DNA of 50,923 nucleotides, filler included, from Sphacelaria rigidula (GCA_964200075.2; 3 parts of 3 records of this genome joined end to end with filler, not necessarily neighbours in it); one strand, 5' to 3'; numbered from the whole stretch's first letter, positions 16,918 through 50,923 are shown. Notes: generated by a model not told the origin, from the letters alone. Program-made: numbers and translations.

Positions 16918-17017
16918 NNNNNNNNNNNNNNNNNNNNNNNNNNNNNNNNNNNNNNNNNNNNTTAATTAATTAANNNNNNNNNNNNNNNNNNNNNNNNNNN
17001 NNNNNNNNNNNNNNNNN
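16918..17017. other. Artificial scaffold linker (N44-TTAATTAATTAA-N44)
   Basis: Exactly 100 nt; the central 12-mer puts stops in all six frames; identical to the linker at 33923-34022. Confidence 0.97.
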
Positions 17018-23216: not shown

Positions 23217-23926
23217 GCGTATGGCGTGATGACATTTTGGGCAGGTCTCGGCGCCAATAGCGTGCACGTATCTTGAGTTCAACAATGTACCTCCTGGACA
23301 CTGGATCATCGTAGGCCTCGCATTATCGAGACAGGAAATACTACGGTGGACTGAAATTCTGTGTGAGAGAGAATGAGACTGGCGGTGTTACGTATTTCAT
23401 ATTTCTGATCGATCGAGGGCGGAAGCCCTGCTGTCATCGCCCTCGAAATCATTCCGATGGAAATATTCATCTTTTCCATAAGTTTTTGTGAGGACGGGGA
23501 AACATTTTTGATGAAATTGAGTAAGGGAACGTGAAATAGTTGGCACGCGTGGGCTGTTGGGCTCATGATCACTCACAGGACCCTACACCCGAGGTGCGGG
23601 GGAGAAAAAAGAGACGCCCACAACTACATCTCCCAGCACTTCTACGAGGGAGCAAACATGGACCGACATATCAGGGGGTAGTACGGGCAGGGACTATCGG
23701 CATGGCGGCAATCACGCGCAAGGTGTAACGGCACCAACTGATTCAGCCCCACCCCCTTCCGCGTTAGACAGTAGGGAGAAAACAATGGCTATACTAGGAG
23801 ATAGATGGTGGCCAAAGACGGCGAATCAGGACGGGGATGAAATATGTAAAATGTTTTTGTGTCACGTATGGAAGAAACGTAATGAGCGCCGGAATGTTGG
23901 AGTTGTCTCTAGTAGGAGTAGAAACG

Positions 23927-24102
23927 GTGCTCCGTCTCGCTAGAGTTGCGTGGTCAATGGTCAAACGACTAAGGCAAGCAACAAATGAGTACCGCTCCCC
24001 TCCCCCCCCCCCCCCCCTACCGTGCTCCGTCTCGAAAGGGATGCGTGGTCAATGGTCAAATGACTAAGGCAAGCAACAAATGAGTACGCCCCCCCCTCCC
24101 CC
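23927..24102 (+). repeat. Family A repeat, tandem pair separated by a C-tract
   Basis: Copies at 23927-24017 and 24022-24102; both C-tracts end in CCCCTACCGT. Confidence 0.93.
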
Positions 24103-30615: not shown

Positions 30616-31263
30616 GTGAGCGTGATTGCGGGATGCGCAGAGGAGATTGTTTGCCGGCTAGTTTTACTTCCACGAACGCAAGGATAAGCTATGCGCCTTT
30701 TTCTCGGAGAAATATTTCCGAGTTTTTCTGCACTCGGCGGCAGAACGTATTTATAGTGTTGGCACACAACTTGTCGGTGTTTTCGGGAGAACCTTGTGGT
30801 GCGTTGTGGTCCCGTCTATCGCCTATGGCCGTCGGGGTATCATGGATAGTGCAGCATGCATCACTGGATAGCTATGTAGCTCAAACGTGCGTACGGCACC
30901 GACGGTTCATCTATTTACCATCTAAAGCGATCATGTGCCAAGTGCACTTTGAGCACAGGGCATGTGCCTTCCTCCTGGAAGGTCTTGGGTGCGCCCCCGG
31001 GCTTCAGAAAAAAAAAGTGGCGTTTGTTCGTTAACATGCACCCATACAGCCATGCGCCCATGAAGCCACGTCTGAAAATCGTAATATTTCTTCTCGTGCA
31101 CCTTGTCATCTCGGGCGAACGGACCGTTATGGCTTGAGAGTCGAGAGCTTTCAATGTATTTTTTGCAGGTGAAAGGGACGCTGATTCAACAAGTCGACCG
31201 ACCGTCTTGGCAGGCAAAGCGTTGACTTGATCGTTTCGTTCCATGTCATTTTCTGCTGTGCAG

Positions 31264-33805
31264 ACTCAAACCGAGACCGAATTCATGGCACAAGCGGACG
31301 CAGCGGTTGTTGTGACGCCTGTGGACAATGACGACAGCAGGGGGTTCGAGGAGGCGGTCGGTGGCATCGCCGGCGGGTCAAGCGAGGTTACACCACCGCC
31401 GACGGTAACGATCGTAACACCGACCGCAACTGACGATTTGACTGATGACGGGTTCACCGACGGCGTTCCTTCGGAAGATATGGACACAGCGCGAAATGCG
31501 GAGATGGTGCGAAGTACGGGGATCGCACCACATGCACAGATCGCGCGAATAGAGGGGATTCACGGCGACGATGACAGCACCGTCAAATGTGAGGCGGATC
31601 CAACCGGTGCGGAGGGGGATAATGTATTATCAGGTGTCAAAGCTCTCGACGGCGGTCGTGACATTGTCAATAATGAGTGTAATCGTCATGAAGTTACAGT
31701 TGGCTCTAAAAACGGGTACGAAGGGTTTAATAGCGCATACAGTGATGACGCCATCGCTGGCTCTGCTCCGGAGAGCTCTTGTCCTGTTGGGTACGAGCGT
31801 GGCGCCGCCGATGGCAAATGCCCCTCTGGTGTTGGCGGTGACGATGATGCCACCTTCGGTGATGAGTCAACCGTCCCAGTAGATGGTGGTACTTTCGACG
31901 GCAGCGAGAGAGAAGACGAGGGAGAGACAGCTACAAGAGCAACCACAACACCGTCAGACGTGATGGTGGATGGGGGTCGCGCTGCCAAGCAGGAACGAGA
32001 AAAAGGATCAGACGACGAGCGACCCGGCCGTGACACTGGCAGCCGCGGTGCGCTCATGGATGATGCAGTGCGAGATGAGCCTAGGCAAGGGGGGGGGAAC
32101 GGCGATGGTAGCCATGTTACTCAAGTGACGCTTGTTGACTCAACAACATCGTTTGATGGCGAAGGGAAAGGGTTCATAATGCCGTTGGACGTCGCGAACA
32201 CCAAAGACGACGAAGACGATGATAGCCATGGCGATTGGCCCATCTGCATCGAAAGCGATCAAGTCCGGGAAGAAGCCGCAGAGTTCGTGGTGCCGGTGGC
32301 AGAACCTCCGGCGCCAGCAGCACAACAGGCCGATCTTGGCACGAAGGGAAGGCTGAACCTGATGCATGCGAGCAGTGGCAATCTTCTGTCACTGTTGAGT
32401 GGGGGGATGAAGCCGGGGGGCGGGGGCGGAATAGTGCACGGTGAGTTGTTCGCTCGTGAGCATGGAAGGGGAAGTAAAGTGAGGAACGGGTGCAGGTGAA
32501 GCACCAACCGTTGCTGGGCAGAAAGTGGGAGAGCAACACAAGTGCTCTTAAGGGACGTTCGATGGTGGAAGGTAGATGAGGGATAGACAGGGGCTTCGCA
32601 CTTGATCAATCATGAGTAACGGAATCTCTCCGATAAGGGAGATGGATTTCTAACTTTGTGCTCCTTTCATTATGCAACACCATACACTGCGTGACGCGAT
32701 GGTATTTATTTCATGGTGATTACATTTTCTGTGTTCCTTCATTTCTTCTGCGGTGATATGTTCTTCACACCCGGGCAGTCAGTCCACGGTATAAGTAATA
32801 GCGATGTATCCCCCGCGTCATCAGGAGGACCATGTATCGCCTATTCCCGAGATGCTCCACGGACTGCTGCGACCAACGATCGTTTCAGGTACAGAACCAT
32901 CTGTTGTGCCCTCGGCAGCAGGTGTCGCGGAAACCCTTACAGTGCCGGAGCAAGCACGACGAGCAACAGCAGGTTCCGGATCGTCAAGAGCGTCTCCCGA
33001 TCAAATGTCGTTGCCATCATTGCACGAAGAGACTGCCGTCCTTCCAGATCCGGGAGGAAACGTGAAACAACGACGGCGTTCAATTATTTCTGAGGGCGCC
33101 CCCTTCGTGATGGATAACAACAGCAACACTAACAATGGGGCCACCGATGTCGATGACGGTTTCAGAAACGGGCGAGAAGCCAGCGACGGACAGCCAACAA
33201 CATCATCAGCGCCGAGCACAACGGAAGAGTACCGATCTGTTCCGTTGGAGGCAGCGGGAACCGCGCCGAAGACCGTTTTCGATGCCGTCCCGGGAAACGC
33301 TCGATTACGCGGTCAGGTGTGTGACCCCGATAAACGAGGTGTGGTCGGCGATACTGAGTGACGGGCGTGTACAGTATTGGAAAAAAACAATACTTGATGT
33401 TGAGTGCGTCCGACATTCGTGTTTCCTTGTCTGCTTCCTGTCCTCGTCATTTTTTCATGCTCCCCTCATCCAGGACGATCCAAGTAGCACTTCCAGGAAC
33501 GACATCCCGCAGAATGGATCAAATACTGTTGCGGAAGTGGGTTCAGAGCACGCTCCAGGATCATTACCGAGCTTGCCTACCTCCCACCCTGGTGGTGGCG
33601 ATCATGTCGGCGGCGCGAACAATGACAAGTGCGAGGTCGGTATGCCTAGGACCGCCACGGATGTGCTGTTGCAGTTAGCTGGGGACTGTGAGGATGATGA
33701 CCTGGATATGTATGGGGACGAATCCGCCCATCCATCGGATTTTGGTACTTCGGAGACTGTTCGACAGGACTTTCGGGTTCCGGCATCCGCAGGGTCAAGT
33801 CGATT
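31264..33805 (+). CDS. Multi-exon gene (partial), long acidic Asp/Gly/Ser/Thr-rich, probably disordered protein
   Basis: Exons 31264-32440 (TGCAG / GTGAGT), 32889-33316 (TTTCAG / GTGTGT), 33474-33805 (TCCAG / GTAAGC, or stop at 33807-33809) join in frame; matches the 418-, 185- and 224-aa ORFs. Confidence 0.8.
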
Positions 33806-33851
33806 GTAAGCGCCTTTTTTTTGCCCCCCCCCCTCCCCTCCCTCTTCTTGC

Positions 33852-33922
33852 AAGGGATGCGTGGTCAATGGTCAAACGACTAAGGCAAGCAACAAATGAG
33901 TACGCCCCCCCCCCCCCCCCCC
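33852..33922 (+). repeat. Family A repeat at scaffold end
   Basis: AAGGGATGCGTGGTC...ATGAGTACG-C(n) running into the gap. Confidence 0.92.
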
Positions 33923-34022
33923 NNNNNNNNNNNNNNNNNNNNNNNNNNNNNNNNNNNNNNNNNNNNTTAATTAATTAANNNNNNNNNNNNNNNNNNNNNN
34001 NNNNNNNNNNNNNNNNNNNNNN
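33923..34022. other. Artificial scaffold linker (N44-TTAATTAATTAA-N44)
   Basis: Same 100-nt structure as 16918-17017. Confidence 0.97.
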
Positions 34023-34113
34023 CATGATAACGCATGTTTTAGCTATTATAGCATTTACCTCGTAACTCTACAAAGCCGGGACGGAGCACGCCGGGTTTTC
34101 GCCGGACCAGGCT
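34023..34113 (-). repeat. Family B repeat at scaffold start
   Basis: GGTTTTCGCCGGACCAGGCT is matched in reverse complement by the last 20 bp of the window; contains GACGGAGCACG, the reverse complement of the 5' end of family A. Confidence 0.6.
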
Positions 34114-34750
34114 CGCACTCACTCACTCGGGGGGAGTGGGGAGGGTCATTTTTTCCTACAAAAAATAATACCTCTCAAAAAAGAGAGAGAGCGGGAACAC
34201 GGGCACAGCACCGGTGTGTTTGCGGGAAAAGCCACTGACGTTGTCAGGTAGCTCTGAAAACGAAGGAACGACCGATTTCTTTCAAGTGCAAACGACAGAG
34301 CGGCGGTAGAGAAAGCTGGTGGGTAGGGTTCCAAAAGATTAAACTGTTGGCTCCATGTTTAAGGCAGCTGTGCTGCACGTTCAAGTGACGGTTCCACAAT
34401 AAACAACAGAAGAAAAAAGAAGTACGTCTTGAACAAATTACACGTGCCGCTCGAGGAAAGCGACGCTGAGATCGCGTCAAATTGCGTAACAGTGGCCAAG
34501 AGAAGAGCTGAAAGACGCGGGTGGACACCATCGGCCGCGTGCGAAAGCAGCGACCCGATCAATATATGTTACCCCAACGGTGAACGATAAACTTACCTTG
34601 AACCGGGCTTACACCCTTCCCTGGGATGATGATGATCACATTCAATATCTTCTGATGAGAAAATACGGGGAGCCTCCAGTAGGCACCGTGTACGGGGGGC
34701 ATCTAGTCTATGTGCATCTCTTTTACGGACATCTATTATACTATATATAC

Positions 34751-37700
34751 CTTATCGTACCAACGTTCCAAGCTTTTGCTGTGAGTGAAAGCATCAATGC
34801 CGGGGATAATGATGGTGGCCACCGCCAGCGCCGTGGAACTAAGCGTTGGGCTCCATCCCAACGCCTGCTCCCCAATGGCACTCGTACCGATTCCCCAAAA
34901 AAACATAGCCGGTGCTCCAAGCGCTAAGCTTATGATGGATCGCCTGGCAGAAGGGAAAAGAGAGTAAAAGTGTTGACACCATGTCGCCGCTCAAAACATG
35001 CCACAGTAAGGTTGAAATGCGTCAAGGGTGAAGTCGCATGAATTGCGATCGGAGTATACCGACTGCGGCAAGAGATACTTAGCGATGCGATCAACGACTG
35101 GCACGGCATCAGCCGATGCATCAACGGCAACATCACGAGGGCAAGTGTCGGTGTGTATGAGGCTTACTACTGAGGCGCGCACCGTGGATGGACCTAGCTG
35201 AGGACAAGGGCAACGATGGCACACTCTACCGCAAGGGGCTCCAGTCTAATGACACACTTTGCCTCTGGAGAACTTCTTGATTCCGGGTTTTCTAGTTTCT
35301 CCAAGCGAGCCGCCCAAGAAAGCACCGGCGCGACAACGCATAGCGCGATGAGCATCCAAAACGCGTGCCAGGCGTTGTCCATTTCCGGCAGGAGCAGCTG
35401 AAATATCTGCGAAGTAGTCAAACGTAGCGCCTGGGTGGACATACGGCTGATGACTCCCCCCGCGCCTCGGTCTGCTTTGTTCAAGCTACGACCGAGGATG
35501 TATATAAAGGGGTAGTATGGTCAAGATTTGACACCACAACCGTATCGTTTGAGCAGGAGTTAAAAACAACACTTCTGCGGTGTGTGTACTGTGTAGTAAT
35601 CTCGGCATTGTGGTGTCATTTCCGTGCGGTTGTGTGGGTGTGCCTGATACGACTGTAGAGATCCATCTCTAGCCCAAATTGATATGCAGTACCGGCCCGA
35701 CACGCAGAACACGCACGATAACATTTCTAACCCAACCCGGACCGCAAACAAAGCGGAAGAAGTCACATGCAGAGGAGATGGCACACGCTTCACACAACGG
35801 TCGAGGCTGCGCCTTTCCAATCGCCACTATAACTGGATGGTCCAAATTATCATCAAATATCAGCACCTGCGCGCTGCGTGTGACACCGTATCCCTGTGAT
35901 CGGCTGAGCATGCGACAGTTATATGAACAACCATTTGCGGCGGGCTAGGGACAGTAGATATAACCGGCGTTGGGCTACGATATGTCCATGGATGAAATTT
36001 TTTCATTTGAGTGAGAACAACGAGATTCGGATCTTTAGTGTGGCTGCCAGTCCCGCATGCTCGCGTGCGCAGAACGTGTTTTCGTCGAAATCGGCGCCAT
36101 AGGCACTGATTTGAGATCTATCAACGCCACACTTTGCCTGGGGAACGCTATGCATCTCCCTTGCCCGACGGTTCTCGGTATGCCTTATGTTGGGCTTGGA
36201 TTAGGGTTAGGGGTAGCAATAGTTGTGAAATGCGTCTACCATGGACATAGTGTGGCCCCAACGACGGTTAACCCACTTCGTTGAGGGGGCAACTCACCAC
36301 GACAAGCTTCCCCGGAATAAATGCTTGGATCTTGGCCTCGATCGTTTGTGACTTTGCCGCAAGGGCGACGTCTTTCTGCGATCGGAGACAGGCGGCCATC
36401 AAAGTACGGTGAGGGTTTTGCACGTCGGGCCTATGCATGACACTTGGCTTGCCTGCTGGTGAATAAGACATGTATACCTATGGATGCGTAGCACAAGCGC
36501 CTGGACATGGGCGTTTTGAGAGTTCTGGACCTGAAGTATGCCGGATATTGCGCGCCCAGCGTGACCGGTGATGATTCAAACCAGCAAAAAGCGCCTTCAT
36601 CCTTACTTGTCAGGGTGGGTCACCTGGGGCTTTTGAGTTCCAAGTAGAAAGGTGTCGCCTAAACAACGGACCCAATATAGCGCAGCGGATGACGCCAGTT
36701 AGGGATACAATCGATTGAACTCGCAAAACCTCAAATGTGAAGCAGCGACACACCTAATCGACTTTCAAGCGCCTGATTCAGCGAAAGCCATGCAATATCA
36801 AAAGTAAGAGCAGATATATGTGAGAAGGACAAAGTGTTGTTATATGTAGAGTCATTTCAGGCTGGGATAGGCGACAATTATTGCGAGAAAGTCGTTCCTT
36901 TGGGCGACAATTCGGTAACCACTAATCCCGACCCACACCATGGGATGGTTCTCTGCGACTACGTTCGCATGCTGTCTCTTTGGATCGGCAGCAGAAGCAC
37001 ACCATGCTGCCTGCAGCGATGCCCCGGAGTTGCGCAGGAGGCATATCGATCAAATTGTCAGTAATGACGTTTCCTCTACGCCAATCTACGATCATATGTA
37101 CCAATACAAGTCGCACGACCAACAGCCACTGACCCCACGCGCGGAAAACGACGTCGACGCCATTCTGGCGAGCCGTTCGGTGAAAATGAACCCCCGTACG
37201 CACGATACTCTCCTTCTTAAGGTGAAGCGAGACCTGGCCTAGGGAACACGCCGTTACTATTTCCTAGGATTCCAACTATTTTCTGCTACAGTCTCGTACG
37301 ACGCCGGCGGAATATATTGGTGGGATCGTCTACCGAATCCGTGGCTAGTGCAGGATGGAGGGGATCGTGTTCGACCCTTGAGCTCACAGCGCTCACCCGC
37401 TGCCTAGGGCAAGCCCCCACCCATTTTGATTGTACCCCGACCCTCGAGCTGATGATCATCGATTCACCATAGCACACTGACTCATGACACAATGAGGGAA
37501 TCCGGCCTTGCTGACGAAATAGACCGACTCAAGTACCATGAATGAAAACACTTGTGAACGCAATTAAAGGGGCGAGCACCAAGGAGAGGGCATATCCACG
37601 CACTTAGCCACGCACAAGACGACTGGTCATACGAGTTGACCTTGTGCACGCACGGAAAAAATGGCATTTTCGGCCTATGTCTGTGCCGGTTTGTCGATGC

Positions 37701-40700
37701 AAAATCAAAAGCACCCGAAATTCTACGGCAAATGGTACGTAGTCGAAGACACCGGCAAAAACACTTTTCGGCAACCATTCAGCGGGCATAGCACCATCAC
37801 TACGAGTATGACTGCATCTCGTTGGTGCCGCCGACCATTGGCATCGCTCGGTGGTAAATTCCCGGTATTCCACGCAAACGCAGCAATCAAGAGAGAGAGA
37901 GGGTCGCCTCAATTTTACATGACAAAACTATGGTTTTCGTACAGCCAACGGGCAGCTCGCGTTTGATGCTTCGCACCTTTAGCTGAGCGAGCCTTCGACC
38001 AACTTGGGTTTCCATTTCCCGGGACGTCGTCATGAGCGCCGTCTTCATGGGGCTTTCCCTCGTGTCATCGTCCAGTCCAAGCAGAGCATCCACCTGACCA
38101 TCAAGTATGATAGAAAACAATTATTCAGCACAGCGCAACGTATCGAAGGTGGAAAAAAACTTCCACGAAGGTGAAGATGACCAGTGATGCAGAACCGCAT
38201 CAAAATGGCTGGTGGCCGGGGTAAGATATGTAATACACGGGCCAAATCGTGAGACGTATGGAAATATGGCTTATAGTTCTGCTTGGCTGTTTGCGCAGGT
38301 TGAATAAACCATGAAGCAGGCAACGAGTGACGGTCAAGACGTTGATGCGACCCTGACATTCCGCCACTTGCCACTGCCGCAAGTAGAAGCACCCGGTTGC
38401 CCATGAATACATCATCCCAAAATAATCCACGCACCACTCGACAAAGGAACACGAGCACAATGCCCGAGCGCGGTATGTGCAGAGAGGAAAAGGGCCACCT
38501 GCTCCGCTTCAATTTGCACCTGAAACAGTCCGACTTTGTCAGCATTTCACTTTGCTTGCAGTGAATACACTGGAGCCTTCCTCTCACCTCGTCATCCCGT
38601 ATCTCCTCCCTGAGAGCGTTGATTACCGCGTCGAACACTTGAGGACGTCCGGACAACACCGCGTGGGCGACTGCCGTTCTTCCCCACGAATCCTTCGCTG
38701 CCATGTGCTCTCGGACCTAGGCATTCGAACAAATTCCATTTACACGTGGGCCAAGATTCCGAAAAAGTGGTGAAGTCAGGGTGATCGCCATTTCGATTTT
38801 GATTGAAAGCGCACGGGGGCACCGTTATTTTTCGAATGAAAACTTGTCGGCAATACCCTGCCTCAGACTGCAAAACGCCATCTCCGAGAGGAATCTCCGG
38901 AAGTAGCACCGACGACGAACCATTCGCGGCCGGCTGCACCTCGAAGCTGGCGGCTTGCATCTGCTCAACACCCACACCCCGACAGATATTCGAACATATG
39001 AACAGTATCATGAATGCTACCCGAGCGCAGTCCGCCCTGCTGCGTACAACCTCAGAGAGGGTTGTGCGCCACTGCTCGTGGCATCAGGATAAAACGATGC
39101 GAAACACCTACACGGCCACTACTGATTACCGTGTAAAACACGTTCATCGGGCAATCCACCAGAACCAAACCTCACCCGTGCCTGTGGTACATCCCAGCGA
39201 ATGGACTCGTCAAAGATCTCCCAATCAGCAAAACTTCAACACGCACGAAATTCGCGGCGACCTGGCGAACACCAAGCCAGGAACCTCCACCATAACATCG
39301 CAACTAATCATAACTAGTCGAAGTGATCCACTACAAAATCCGTAAAATCGTTTTTGATACCCGAAGCGCACGTGATGATTGGCTGTTTGGCAACCATCTG
39401 ACATGTTCGTGCTTCAGATATATACGTACGTCTTCTTTCCAAAGACTTTCGCGCAGGAACTGGATAGCAGCGAGAACGACGGGCACGTGATGATCTATCC
39501 TGTTCATTTCTATACCTGTCCAGACAGCACGGTACAGCGAGGAAAAAACGAAGCACGACTAAGTAAAACGACTCAAAGCAAACCGAACAAAAAGCGAACA
39601 AAAAACGCTACCCTTGGCGTACCCCGCGGAATGAAACCCTGATAGCGTCATCGATTGGTAAACGATAGGCGGCAACGTTGCTACTAGCTAAAGTCAAGAG
39701 GTACACCTAGACCAGGCGGGGTTCCCGACGGCTGAACAACCCCGTGCCATATGCTGGGCTTACGTGCACGGTATGGTGTCCGCTCTTGACCTACCGTGCT
39801 CGGGCTGACGTTCTATTTGCGGCAAGCCCAGCGAGAACGAAGCTGCGTAGTCTGAAAAGTCCCGCCTGGTGCTGGCAGCTTGCGTTCTTCGCAGAGTTCG
39901 GGCTCGGGGAGTTGAAGTAACTGTCGAGGTTTCTCCCCCTCTTTCCTGTCCTTGCCCGTCTGCGAGGGCCGATGAGATTAGGCCGCCGTCAGTAGTGGTG
40001 TCTGGGCTCGACCCTGACGCTCGGCTTGTGCCGCCTGGAAGGGATAGCCAAAGAGAAAATCGGTCGAGGATAAGAGCGCCGATTAAATGCGTCGGCGAAA
40101 TTCTCTCCAGCTCCACGGTAGCGAAAAACGTGGTTTAGATGTCAACAGTCACAATTCGGATCTTTGCAGGGCACAGTCTGGTGTGCTCAGCACGTATTCT
40201 TCGCACAAATCTGCTCCGTAGGCGCCGATTCGAGAACCACCAACGCACATGTCGCCTGGGGCACCGCATGGATCCTCGTTGTTCGAGGATGGTAGTTCTG
40301 CCTCGAGCTGGGGTTTGGGATAGGGGTAGATCCCGCACTTGACATGAAGTATGTTCAACCATGGATTTGGGAAGCCGAGTGAGGATAAGTCTCCAATCAG
40401 GTGGATGTACTTTCTCGGGGATCGAGACACTATACTTTACCATCCCCCTCTGAAGTCACAACGCCGGACCTTCTTGGCATCGCGGCGCTACGGGTTAGAA
40501 AGGTACCGTGAGCCGAGAGTAATCATGCTCCTTGGCGGCAAGAGATGAGACCTCGTCTGCGATTTGGACCAGAGCAAGAATCGCCGTCATCGTTGAATGA
40601 GTCGAGCGAACGGCACGGCGAAATCCGGACGCGCTTTACACTCAATTGTTTCTTGTCCGGAGAGTATATCTGTCGTGGAGTCCCATTCCCGTGGTCGCGC

Positions 40701-43700
40701 GGTTACATTCAGCCCATGGCACACGCTTTGGCTCGCTCTCAATCCATTTTCAACGCGGGGCATGAACACATGATCAGAGGCGACTCACAATTTTGCAGTT
40801 CTCACGTCGACGATGAGCAAGATCGAAAAAGCTCATGTTCATGGATGCCAGGGTTTACCGCAGTGAACCCCATCATTCAACATGTGTCGTAAACACAGTG
40901 TTTTTATTCATTTATTTGTCGCACTTTGAACCCCTCACTTTCTCGGAACGAGTCCGTGGTCTCAAGGGCTCAACCCTTCACTCCCCGGTATACGCCTTGC
41001 AACTTGGTCTCGCGAGTGGGTCAGCACTCCCACACCGCGTCAACTCACGTCGAACAAACTCAGTCGACTATTTTGTTTACTCACGTTCTCACGCTTTCCA
41101 CGGTAGAAATCAGACATTACGAAGAAAAAACCCAACGCATCGAGAACCGAACCCTCGTTTTCTCCACCCTAACGGCGACAGTCGGACCATTACACCACCG
41201 GGGTTCGGCAGCAATATGCTGTGACTCTACTCGGCCATACCTTGGGAATTAGCAGCATGCATGTAGAATGTCAGCCCGTCTGCATCCCTTTGGCTGATGA
41301 GCTCCCTCAACTGGCCACGACCGGAATCCAAAACGTACTTTCGTCAGTATATACTGCGAACAAAGCCTGCATGTCAAAATGAGCTGATCCACATCCCCTT
41401 CCACCGTGGTCGATGTAGCCGAGTCGTTGATTCGTTCAGCGAGAATTCGACCGAAGGCTTTCCGGCCAAAGAATTGATCAACGCATGAATCCATGGTGAC
41501 TCTCAAGTGCCACAGGGATTGAATAGGGTTTTTTGTAGAAAACTTCTTGAGTCGTATGTGGCAGTATCTCCAATCCTAGGAGTACCTCTGTAAACTGGGG
41601 GGTGTTGCACTCTGCTCCCACAAAAGGTGAGAGATAAATCGAACAACCTTGCTGATTGGAACCAAGGGCACTGCCGAGGCATGCATTCCGCGAATGAGCA
41701 TATCATGAGTTGTCAACGCAGGAGAAGCGAGCATGTCAATAGCGCGCCTTGCCTGCACGGGGGTCATGAGACGATTCAACCACTTGACGACGGCCTTGAA
41801 CGTCATCTTGTCTCCAGATCGCGCGGCGTACATGAGGAGCGTCATATCGTTGGCCGATTCCGCGATGAGCTGATCAAATACCTGTGCAGCCAGCACAAAA
41901 TCATTTGGGCGCAGCGGCGGGTGAAAACACGGGGAGCGGAACGCGAACTGACTCAGGCAGCTGGTTTCAGGTATTCATCATTTACCGTGGTGGAGTTTGT
42001 AGCGAGGAAGGAATAGAGCAGATCTGAGAATTCGCAAGGAGGCGTATCCTCCACGCGCGGAAAACCCCAGTGTCAAAACAAACACCAACTCACCGTGCGT
42101 TTCACCCGTTGTCGTCTCGGCGCTGCGAACTGTAATGTGCTACATAGGATGACTCTGGTCGCAAACGTCATACTGCAACATTACTCCCCCTATTGCATCA
42201 CAAACGTCACATGAACTATAGACACAGCCTCCTGACCACATCCACGCATGCCGAAACCGAGGCCTTGTCCTTTCATTTGTCCAAGATCATGCTCGTGGAC
42301 GACAGTGGGGAAGTGTGTCACTGCCCGCGTATGTCCACAAAATACAACAGATACAGTAGCGGAGCCGTAGTGTGGTGCCATGTAACACCGCAAGATGAGC
42401 GGGTTTTTATGGCTAGTCTTGAATTTTCCCTCAAAAGCTTGAATGACGGCAATCCGCTGAAAGGTAAGGCAGGGTCAGCAACTCGGCGGTGGGCGTTTTG
42501 TCTGCTCACTATACCGCTTCTTTGCGCCACTGCTGCGCAACCAAACGCAATAACGTCTAACAGTACGCGTATACATATCACCGTGTCGACTCTGTCCTTC
42601 TTTTTCCCATGCTGGCCTTGACCAAATGCAGTCCGGAGAGCTCGGATAACCTCATCCACCACGGGAGCCCTTCCCGAGCCTGCTGCATGGTGGAGTAGCG
42701 TTTTCCTCTTGTGATCCTTCACCAGTAGGGCATGAGGCATCTACGGGGTAAACAGCGAAGCACACACGTGTTTTACACTCCAACGTGAATTGCGCCGGAT
42801 GTACAAGTCCATGGAATGTTTTCTGCAGTTGTGCAGAAAGTAGATGCCATTGCAATCGTCCGCTGGGGGGAATATTCAACGCAAGTGTCCACCGTTCCTT
42901 ACCGTTACAAATAATCGACACAGAACATCCCACGGCTGACACACTTTCGGCGTAGACCCAACCCTTTAATTCCTCGCAGATTGACTCGTAAGCCACCCGT
43001 GGGAACTGCAGCCAGAGTGCGCGGAACCTCGGCAATGCCGTGTTTCTCACGACAGCGTCCATCATGTACATAGAAACCAACACATGGAGATATGCTGTAA
43101 GTCTACCATCATAATGAGCATACGTTTAGATTGAATATTCAATAGGGGGCGCACCTTTTGTTTGAATATCTCCTCCGCGACTGCCCCCAACAATGCCACG
43201 TCCCCACCTCTTGCCGCGTGGATAGCAACGGTGTGGCCTAAGTTGTCCTGGATCTTGAGCTGCGTGCGCATGTCTTCGTCTCGGATCTGCTGAGAGTAAA
43301 CAAACATTGTCCAGCGTGAGGTCGGCGCCTCCCATCGATATCCTGATCTCATTGAACTGAATTGAATTACTATTCACACAGCCACCCACCACTTCACTTG
43401 AAACTCGAGCTAATTTGTGACGGAATCACTTCACACAGGATGCCAAATACGCCCAACTACCGCTGCACGAGTGTTTTCTAGGCCGCGGCCTCCGCAAAAC
43501 GGCTTCTCGACAACCGTCAGACGACAGGACCATTAACCGCAACATACACCAACGGGACGGGAAAAGTACCGTCAGGTATATATCTTACGCATTCAACCCT
43601 CACACAAAAACACATCTCACCGCATCTTCACCGTCAGAGTAGAGGTTGTCGAACTCGTTGAGAACCGTCGTGAACACCTCGAACACGCCGGTCGCAGCCG

Positions 43701-44108
43701 CCGCCATCAACGGTGTTTGCAAGGGGGACTTAGGGTCACTGCTGGGCGAACACAGCACGGCCTTCAAGGTGTCATCACCATGCACACTAGACATGACCTG
43801 TCTCATCTTGTCGGTGTCGCATTCATTTATCGCGCAGATGAGCTGGCTGGAACATTTCGCCACGCTCGAGGAACTGTGAACTTGCCGTCGCAAGATTGAC
43901 AGACGCTGAGATCCTGACGAACGTAACTGTAAAATCTCCAAAGGATGTAGGGTGGGGTTTGCCAGAACGCGCGGCATGTGAGCGGAAAGGGTGAAAAGGG
44001 GGAATGTAAAAATAAGCCTAATGTCACTGGTGGCCGTCTCCGTGTGTATGTACTCTTCATGGCACAGCAATCGCTCGGTCAAAATGCTCAACTCCAGCTA
44101 CCTGACAT
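34751..44108 (-). CDS. Multi-exon gene: ankyrin-repeat protein with C-terminal four-helix membrane domain (DUF679/DMP-like by eye)
   Basis: Well-supported exons 43913-43621, 43286-43155, 42740-42582, 42129-42094, 41881-41753, 38716-38588, 38093-37977, 36375-36298, 35406-35258, 34943-34751. Less certain exons 44108-44102 (ATG), 41647-41586, 41501-41339, 40034-39764 and others between 38800 and 40700. ANK motifs TPLMAAAATG, GHTVAIHAARGG, KTLLHHAAGSG, MTLLMYAARSG, GRTAVAHAVLSG. Confidence 0.82.
36050..36255 (+). repeat. Dispersed repeat with TTAGGGTTAGGG core (intronic), shared with 20337-20525
   Basis: Direct alignment by eye. Confidence 0.82.
36530..37245 (+). mobile_element. Possible highly decayed Ty1/copia RT-RNase H remnant in an intron
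   Basis: GWFSATTFACCLFGSAAEAHHAA and QPLTPRAENDVD loosely resemble copia SWFSRTQ-CVTLSSTEAEYVA and NP--TPRTKHID. Weak. Confidence 0.3.
40897..41208 (-). mobile_element. tRNA-derived SINE family 2 (intronic)
   Basis: Reverse complement has A box TGGTGTAATGG, B box GGTTCGGTTC, a body shared with 26795-26985 and an A-rich end. Confidence 0.7.
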
Positions 44109-44813
44109 ATTTGCAGGTATGCGTGAAACGGTTCCACAGGGTCGTACTCGAGCCTTCAGGAACCGGAAGTAAGGTCCATTTCTCGACGGCGGCGGGGGCA
44201 CGGGAATATTGGGAGGCGAAAACGCTTCGTGAACCACTTCATCTTATGCTGCGCGATTCAACATTGCTTGCACAATGTCCGCATAATGAGGATTGGTCAC
44301 CGAAAGGCTTTCGCACTCGCAGGCAGGGCGGACTGGTTGCGTGTGCTCTGTGTTTCCGTGGAATGCGAAACAACGGTAATGTGACCGGATATTCCAACGC
44401 TATGCTGAATTCAAGTCAAAACAGACATTTTTCGTGTTCCCCGTTGCCGCCTAGCATCACCTCAACAACTACCAAAATATATATTTTGGTAACATTCCAC
44501 TCCCACGCACGCACCACCTTCATACTGTTCCCAGAGCCTGCTGCTCTTGGGCTTCGTTCACATTCTACGTCATTGAGGTGGTGTTCATCATCTTGGGGCC
44601 ATCAGCGTTCTATCCCAAAGAGTTTGGCGGATTTACACACACCTCATCCACTGAGCACCTTGGTTGAATGCCGATTGGGTGTCCAAACAATTAAAAAAAG
44701 AATCGCGTTTGATATGCATTTGGGAGAAACGATGCTCCGGTGTCTACTTTGTGGTCACCACTACGCTGACATCGAATGAAGGAATCTCTTGCACTTCATC
44801 TCACAGGATACCC

Positions 44814-50040: not shown

Positions 50041-50426
50041 AGATGTAAAATAAATTAGTTACATCAGACATATTGATGAAAGGGATACACTACGTACGGT
50101 AGATGGATGAATAAGTCAAGAGACGTATAGTCATGTGTCGATGACGAAGAGGATTGTTTACCGAAATAGGTGAAAGCTGAGATGGAGTGGTCGATCACAT
50201 ATGCACGGACGGGTCTTGCCCTTTAAGGGATGGATTGCATTGGTGGGGCGAAGAAAAGCGTGTGAGAGCTATGTTGTCTCCTCAAGTCTGCTTTACTTCT
50301 TGTGGAGGCTGGTGCGACTGCGCTTAGCAGCATCTCCAGATGGAAGACAACGGTCGGATATGTGAGGAGTTACTATTTTGAATGGGTGAATGAGGAGCTC
50401 GCCTCCACCCCCCCTTCAAGCTCCAA

Positions 50427-50509
50427 GTGCTCCGTCTCGAAAGGGATGCGTGGTGAATGGCCATACGACTAAGGCAAGCAACTAATGAGTACGCCCCCAT
50501 CCCTCCTCC
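50427..50509 (+). repeat. Family A repeat copy
   Basis: GTGCTCCGTCTCGAAAGGGATGCGTGG...ATGAGTACGCCCCC. Confidence 0.92.
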
Positions 50510-50923
50510 AAGCTGAGTGGGGGGCGTGCGAGCACAACGCGATAGAAAGTCGAAAGCAACGGGAAAGAAAGGTTCGATTCTGTCTTCGGCAAAAATCGAT
50601 GTTTGTTCAGGAGCTGGAAATTGTTTCCCAGATGTTGATGGCGGTTGAAGTTTTCTAGAAGCCATTTCAGAACACATTGGCCTGAACGATTGCCTGTGTG
50701 ATGAGTCAGGTGGGACGGTCCAGTGTGGTGGATGCAGGAAGGCACAAGGGCAAGTGCATCTATGGTTGAGGGACAGTACCGGTGTGTGGATTCAGGACGA
50801 GGTTTGTGAGATTCGGGAGACGGGTGTGGCGCGACTATCGGGTGATGACAGCATCTCGAATCGTTGTTGTCTGCGTTTTCCCCGCCCCCCCCCCCTCCTT
50901 ATTAGCCTGGTCCGGCGAGAACC

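Follow-up and report, generated by a model that had tools for sequence, protein, structure and literature searches.

The DNA analysed here is a stretch of 50,923 nucleotides, filler included, from the brown alga Sphacelaria rigidula (GCA_964200075.2; three parts of three records joined end to end), called the window below. On its minus strand, from 43929 down to 34751, lies an expressed gene with 12 or more exons, encoding a member of a brown-alga multigene family in which ankyrin-like repeats are followed by a membrane domain of four predicted helices. An original prediction, made from the sequence alone, had joined the three exons nearest to 34751 and read them as the membrane part of an ankyrin protein, with a domain resembling the plant DMP (DUF679) proteins.

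Transcript and exon structure of the gene

Among the public runs that match positions 34500-44200 of the window, four were aligned, by their contigs and not by their reads. Two of them (X1 and X3), presumed to be RNA, are two samples of one study, and another (X5) is a DNA run. In both X1 and X3 a single contig (record 1, 2452 nt, and record 5, 3180 nt, respectively) contains 11 splice joints between 34751 and 43929. These contigs join the three predicted exons (36375-36298, 35406-35258 and 34943-34751) to each other and to nine exons upstream on the minus strand. The joints at the membrane exons are 34942|35257 (cut +1), 35406|36298 and 36375|37977; the last is the RNA junction between 37977 and 36375 that the original prediction had proposed to look for. 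Eight more joints reach up to 43621 and include 41310|41753 (CT..GC), 41879|42580, 42740|43155 and 43286|43621. None of the 11 joints is found in X5, whose contigs continue straight across the introns. As the joints are present in X1 and X3 and absent from X5, the joined form is RNA and not a retrocopy.

After shifting the cuts, ten introns are GT-AG and one is GC-AG when read on the minus strand, i.e. all 11 are canonical. The 12 exons join into one open frame of 597 codons, as follows.

43621..43929, minus strand, residues 1-103: N-terminal region and first ankyrin-like repeat, 'TPLMAAAATG' (RNA contigs, joint 43286|43621, frame, tblastn of family proteins)
43155..43286, minus strand, residues 104-147: ankyrin-like repeat 'GHTVAIHAARGG' (joints 42740|43155 and 43286|43621, frame, tblastn)
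42582..42740, minus strand, residues 148-200: ankyrin-like repeat 'KTLLHHAAGSG' (joints, frame, tblastn)
41753..41881, minus strand, residues 201-243: ankyrin-like repeat 'MTLLMYAARSG', followed by the GC-AG intron (joints 41310|41753 and 41879|42580, frame)
41241..41310, minus strand, residues 244-267: beginning of another ankyrin-like repeat, 'GLTFYMHAAN' (joints, frame, tblastn)
39795..40034, minus strand, residues 267-347: low-complexity insert rich in Ser, Thr, Gly and Arg (RNA contig piece 39792-40033, frame)
39430..39515, minus strand, residues 347-375: the solenoid resumes with helix 'VPVVLAAIQFLRESLWKEDV' (joints, frame, tblastn)
38588..38716, minus strand, residues 376-418: ankyrin-like repeat 'WGRTAVAHAVLSG' (RNA contig; tblastn, 45-54% identity to six family proteins)
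37977..38093, minus strand, residues 419-457: last helical repeat and start of a long linker helix (RNA contig, joint 36375|37977, model of the relative P0048 with its linker at 357-381)
36298..36375, minus strand, residues 458-483, first predicted exon: linker helix and first half of membrane helix 1, 'AKIQAFIPGKLVV', helix 1 starting at about 36324
35258..35406, minus strand, residues 484-533, second predicted exon: end of helix 1 (35386-35406, 'IFQLLLP'), short acidic outer loop, helix 2 (35305-35367) and basic inner loop
34751..34943, minus strand, residues 533-597, third predicted exon: helix 3 (34874-34936, 'PAMFFWGIGTS'), outer loop, helix 4 (34784-34843, 'ATIIIPGID') and start of the C-terminal tail

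The translations of the three predicted exons are exactly those given originally, and the exons are in phase with each other and with the upstream exon ending at 37977. Ankyrin and membrane exons thus belong to one spliced transcript, which removes the separate-gene arrangement named at the outset as a refutation of the fusion. It could be argued that the two parts are nevertheless two genes and the joined contig an assembly chimera, as contigs rather than reads were aligned and both runs come from one study. However, 11 canonical joints follow each other in one chain, the frame stays open over 597 codons, and gene models in nine brown-alga genera have the same ankyrin-then-membrane order, colinear with the window. 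We regard a chimera as extremely improbable.

Position 34751 is not the end of the protein, as had been assumed. The bases at 34750 form a GT donor in phase 0, so the last placed exon does not end the protein; both contigs extend about 1260 nt beyond 34751, and the C-terminus lies past the placed frame. At the other end, about 126-129 nt of transcript lie upstream of the first placed exon (43929), and the ATG is probably in this 5' part. The 5' edge of that exon is at 43926 or 43929, since 'ttttacag' ends at 43927.

The 3' remainder was searched for in the window. With tblastn, the 22 family proteins gave no match 3' of 34751 at E<=0.1. Scans of the window for 'WSCQK.RF', a tail motif that follows the domain in most relatives, found nothing convincing, and a loose tblastn search with the relatives' tails yielded candidates at noise level only. 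Two candidate tails were rejected. The first, 'IGLLCCWRRRF' from 32334, has an in-phase AG acceptor but is antisense to a 422-codon open reading frame (ORF) on the plus strand. The second, 'QRRFPRAARV' at 34468-34421 on the minus strand, has an in-phase 'tctttcag' acceptor at 34508, and was dropped because the bin 34373-34722 has no cover in X1. The transcript may also have a joint into 34023-34372, beyond the 15 joints listed. Behind the same acceptor, 34421-34507 on the minus strand is an open frame, 'LFSWPLLRNLTRSQRRFPRAARV...', with a faint likeness to the basic tail of the relatives; possibly this is a tail exon that has decayed or is used as an alternative.

Family, ankyrin solenoid and membrane domain

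The peptide of the third predicted exon first matched only unspliced ORFs on anonymous contigs, the nearest being a Logan ORF with 81% identity. A profile search gave 33 relatives at E<=0.01, among them two annotated brown-alga proteins, Ascophyllum P0016 and Undaria P0023. P0023 has the complete spliced membrane domain, including 'KIQSFIPGNLIVIFQLLLPE', which spans the junction between the first and second predicted exons of the window. When P0023 was compared by phmmer with 1.84 billion representative proteins, 75 matches were obtained at E<=1e-3. About 20 of these are long proteins (311-1002 residues) with the domain near the C-terminus, and the others include unnamed fragments.

All 25 named eukaryotic members are Phaeophyceae. 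They belong to nine genera (Ectocarpus, Pylaiella, Scytosiphon, Hapterophycus, Cladosiphon, Nemacystus, Undaria, Ascophyllum and Sphacelaria), and their orders include Sphacelariales, Fucales and Laminariales; the six other member genera belong to Ectocarpales, which makes four orders. Several genomes have three or four paralogues, i.e. this is a multigene family. Judged by these sequence matches, the membrane domain appears to be confined to brown algae.

The spliced protein of the window matches the hidden Markov model (HMM) of the membrane domain with 177.5 bits, over HMM positions 1-139 of 141 and residues 457-597. By tblastn, the family proteins are colinear with the exons of the window. 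The full-length HMM match and the colinear mapping identify the window gene as a family member. Its membrane domain is 61% identical to that of Undaria pinnatifida P0048, the closest named relative, which has the same domain order. Domain order and membrane domain are also the same in two proteins of Ectocarpus siliculosus, CBJ30072.1 / D7FN08 and CBJ32210.1 / D7FWX2 (the latter 'Ankyrin repeat protein', 'expressed unknown protein').

In public databases the members are called 'unnamed protein product', 'Ankyrin repeat protein' or 'Kinase, NEK'. The last name is carried by Ectocarpus siliculosus CBJ30072.1 / D7FN08 (P0050). The Pfam families listed for the 22 scanned members include no kinase, and from its sequence the kinase label of CBJ30072.1 looks wrong. 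Two Nemacystus decipiens members (P0052 and P0056) have 300-400 additional C-terminal residues with a common conserved block ('...VRLEVQ...LLLDFLL...YLRAHI.HF...'), for which Pfam gave no name at E<=1.

Ankyrin repeats are protein-binding modules. The Pfam family Ank_2 is found in 15 of the 22 family members at E<=10 and is above the curated cut-off in seven of the nine long ones. The seven members without Ank_2 include four fragments that contain the membrane domain only (P0016, P0023, P0051 and P0055). The three single-exon ORF pieces of the window gave no Pfam ankyrin match, and the assignment for the window gene is made by colinear homology to the relatives, at 27-41% identity.

An AlphaFold2 (AF2) model of P0048 has a mean pLDDT (predicted local distance difference test) of 74.4, with the solenoid above 90. 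According to this model, a solenoid of helical repeats is followed by an insert, more repeats, a 25-residue linker helix (357-381) and the membrane helices. The insert (residues 222-261), which corresponds to exon 39795..40034 of the window, has a pLDDT below 50 and is predicted to be disordered. With this model Foldseek found at least 346 matches in the PDB at E<=1e-3, and all the highest-ranking ones are ankyrin proteins. At the level of a predicted structure, this shows an ankyrin solenoid fold in the relatives.

A Kyte-Doolittle scan of the window protein (19-residue window, threshold 1.4) finds four hydrophobic segments within residues 471-586, with peaks of 1.55, 2.13, 1.47 and 1.65, the same number as originally claimed. 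The AF2 model of P0023 has a mean pLDDT of 75.4; the means of the helix blocks are mostly 80-93 and that of the inner loop is 64. In this model helix 1 is kinked (56-63 and 66-78) around 'IPG', helix 2 is long, helix 3 is broken at 'WG.GTS', and helix 4 is followed by a C-terminal amphipathic helix. Counts of lysine plus arginine (K+R) are 4/0/4/0/3 before helix 1, in loops 1, 2 and 3, and in the tail. Basic residues are concentrated ahead of helix 1, in the loop that joins helices 2 and 3, and beyond helix 4. This distribution fits an N-in, C-in topology, in which the cytosol would contain both ends of the domain as well as the ankyrin repeats.

No other region of the protein is as conserved as the membrane domain, whose mean pairwise identity is 48.5%, compared with 36.7% and 37.1% for the two ankyrin parts and 28.4% for the insert. 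Among 13 sequences 19 columns are invariant, including P, an L adjacent to Q, W, G, T, S and D. Several of the invariant Pro, Gly, Trp, Thr, Ser and Asp residues sit within helices or at helix ends. Inside the helices, polar, Pro or Gly residues are kept: helix 1 has Q, helix 3 'WG.GTS' and helix 4 'IP..D'.

The membrane domain matches none of the known families searched. A search with the domain profile gave 36 matches at E<=10, none with any Pfam domain in this region. Pfam found nothing relevant in the seven single-exon pieces of the window that were scanned, and NCBIfam gave no match to P0023 or P0016. In the ESM Atlas the best score was 0.80, at noise level, with no named cluster. In sequence searches of the PDB, P0051 had no match and the domain profile had two chance matches only (E>1), and in the structure comparison no solved fold clearly matched the domain. 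The literature on Ectocarpus and on brown-alga and Phaeoexplorer ankyrin and transmembrane proteins, judged by titles and the starts of abstracts, contains no description of the domain that we could find. The domain is thus undescribed as far as Pfam, the PDB and the literature on brown-alga ankyrin proteins show. The original prediction had suggested an undescribed architecture, which is right for the membrane domain; the proteins themselves were already present in public brown-alga proteomes, unnamed or misnamed. An architecture with ankyrin repeats before a multipass membrane region is already known; what is new here is the membrane domain.

Comparison with plant and bacterial membrane proteins

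According to PMC11477165, DMPs are small stand-alone proteins with four to five membrane helices and cytosolic N and C termini. Four helices and cytosolic ends are also what hydropathy, the AF2 model and the K+R counts predict for the window domain, at the level of prediction only. The family consensus 'FIPGKLIVIFQLLLP' fits the putative DMP first-helix pattern of the original prediction at P, F, Q, L and P. Such similarities could be explained if the domain were a remote homologue of plant DMPs that became fused to ankyrin repeats, with a role in membrane remodelling or gamete fusion. However, a short hydrophobic motif chosen post hoc is a weak match, and the profile searches do not find the relationship. 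With the DMP profile PF05078 (cut-off 25 bits; matches with E above about 0.1 are mostly removed by the HMMER filters), no match at E<=10 was obtained in any of the 22 family members, P0023 and others with the whole domain and 'FIPG..IFQLLLPE' among them. None of the nine long members matched at E<=1, nor did any of the four window pieces covering the membrane exons. No plant DMP occurs among the 75 phmmer matches of P0023, and neither these nor the 36 domain-profile matches contain a DMP or a Pfam domain in the region. Searched with PF05078, one bacterial genome and 14 control genomes, all prokaryotic, gave nothing above the cut-off.

In addition, DMPs are reported only from green plants and as small stand-alone proteins in PMC11477165, whereas the window domain is ankyrin-fused and found in brown algae. 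By sequence, the membrane domain cannot be recognised as a DUF679/DMP member, contrary to the resemblance first suggested, and we consider remote DMP homology very unlikely.

The other part of that comparison, that the membrane domain differs from the PGG domain of plant ankyrin-transmembrane (ANK-TM) proteins, agrees with our searches, where PGG (PF13962) matches none of the 22 members at E<=10. ANK-TM proteins (ACD6, Lr14a and similar, with PF13962) have N-terminal cytosolic ankyrin repeats followed by a multipass region, as in the family of the window gene. In bioRxiv 10.1101/2021.01.25.428077, ACD6 is described as a multipass protein whose ankyrin repeats lie in the cytosol; it is connected with calcium influx, and ligands of these repeats regulate it. 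The same study gives ACD6 five membrane helices, compared with four in the window family, and the membrane parts have no detectable sequence kinship. By analogy of architecture, plant ANK-TM proteins such as ACD6 would be the closest functional counterpart. TRP channels also have cytosolic ankyrin repeats before the membrane domain, but with six helices against four; in the same source the pore is placed between helices 5 and 6. The fold matches listed include no TRP structure.

The weakest of the 75 phmmer matches is P0091, a Chloroflexota protein of 134 residues (E 8.6e-4 against the 1.84 billion proteins). It scores 31.6 bits against the family HMM over positions 16-129, covering all four helices, with 'VPGE', 'WAVGTS' and 'LLPGID' in colinear order. 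Ten related loci were found in bacterial metagenome-assembled genomes (MAGs), where the alphaproteobacterial relatives have 186-203 residues. These matches would agree with a descent of the membrane domain from a small stand-alone bacterial four-helix protein similar to P0091, which became fused to ankyrin repeats in an ancestor of the brown algae. However, comparing the algal profile with the bacterial alignment, hhalign gives a probability of only 26% (E 7e-4, 95 columns), and helices 3 and 4 align poorly with the alphaproteobacterial members. The composition of membrane proteins also inflates such scores, and the genes around the bacterial loci provide no link. We therefore consider a bacterial origin improbable; it would be compatible with a function of the domain either as a transducer or as a tether. 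In two alphaproteobacterial MAGs the gene order around the P0091-like gene (L001 3905-4510 and L008 3896-4453) is conserved: a glutathione S-transferase, a fumarate-lyase-family enzyme, the small membrane protein, an Asp/Glu racemase-family enzyme and a major facilitator superfamily transporter.

Neighbouring features of the window

Just downstream of the ankyrin gene, on the opposite strand, 31231-32499 (plus) is an ORF of 422 codons with an acidic low-complexity product, which is probably a convergent neighbouring gene. More ORFs on the plus strand are located at 32795-33361 and 33111-33809.

Several repeated elements were observed. Two identical patterns of 44 N, 12 bases and 44 N, at 16918-17017 and 33923-34022, resemble masked copies of a single element more than gaps in the assembly. 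Beside the second pattern, 34023-34372 has a summed contig depth in the DNA run X5 of about 40,000 times the single-copy level. Within the gene, 40673-41372, in the intron between exons 41241-41310 and 39795-40034, is highly repeated, with a summed depth in X5 of 346,556 compared with about 70 in its neighbours. A dispersed repeat of about 84-95 nt that ends in a run of C has two tandem copies with 87% identity at 23924-24007 and 24019-24102. Its translation, '...VACLSRLTIDHASL...', recurs several times in the window, with similar stretches near 33798-33974 and 50327-50791. Rfam gave no match in the window.

Possible working of the protein and its meaning

We somewhat favour a function as a membrane transducer regulated by its ankyrin repeats, most probably a channel-like module that associates with itself, built on a membrane domain unrelated to those of ACD6 and TRP. 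The protein would consist of a cytosolic ankyrin solenoid with a disordered insert, a long linker helix, the membrane domain of four helices, which starts and finishes on the cytosolic side, and a basic tail. The solenoid would bind cytosolic partners and control the membrane domain via the linker helix; the membrane domain would be an effector, more than an anchor, and probably self-associating and channel-like. We read the membrane domain as the working part because it is the most conserved region and because polar, Pro and Gly residues are retained within its helices.

Alternatively, the four helices could be a mere tether and the protein a membrane-anchored ankyrin scaffold that recruits cytosolic partners. 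The protein-binding capacity of ankyrin repeats is established, no fold or family match hints at an activity of the membrane part, and the basic, Cys-bearing tail of the relatives, 'WSCQK.RF', would fit an anchor associated with the membrane surface. However, a tether hardly accounts for 48.5% identity in the membrane domain against about 37% in the ankyrin parts, the invariant Pro, Gly, Trp, Thr, Ser and Asp residues in helices or at their ends exceed the constraint usual for an anchor, and four helices are more than tethering needs. A tether is, in our opinion, a tentative and rather unlikely explanation.

If the domain does act as a transducer, the family could be a new, brown-alga-specific class of ankyrin-gated channel or signal transducer, independent of the ACD6-type and TRP proteins and perhaps derived from a small bacterial four-helix protein. 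This is a speculative proposal that we think unlikely. If true, it would be the third time that a multicellular lineage has independently combined ankyrin repeats with a membrane domain that conducts.

For the annotation of brown-alga genomes, the analysis corrects a database label, as no kinase domain was found in the member named 'Kinase, NEK', and it removes as unsupported an attractive link to the plant DMP proteins of gamete fusion. Brown algae evolved complex multicellularity independently, and to our knowledge very few membrane proteins specific to their lineage have an assigned role. A conserved multi-copy family in at least four orders, combining a protein-binding solenoid with an uncharacterised membrane domain, is a candidate for signalling, ion flux or defence, and it can be tested in Ectocarpus, where gene knockouts are possible.

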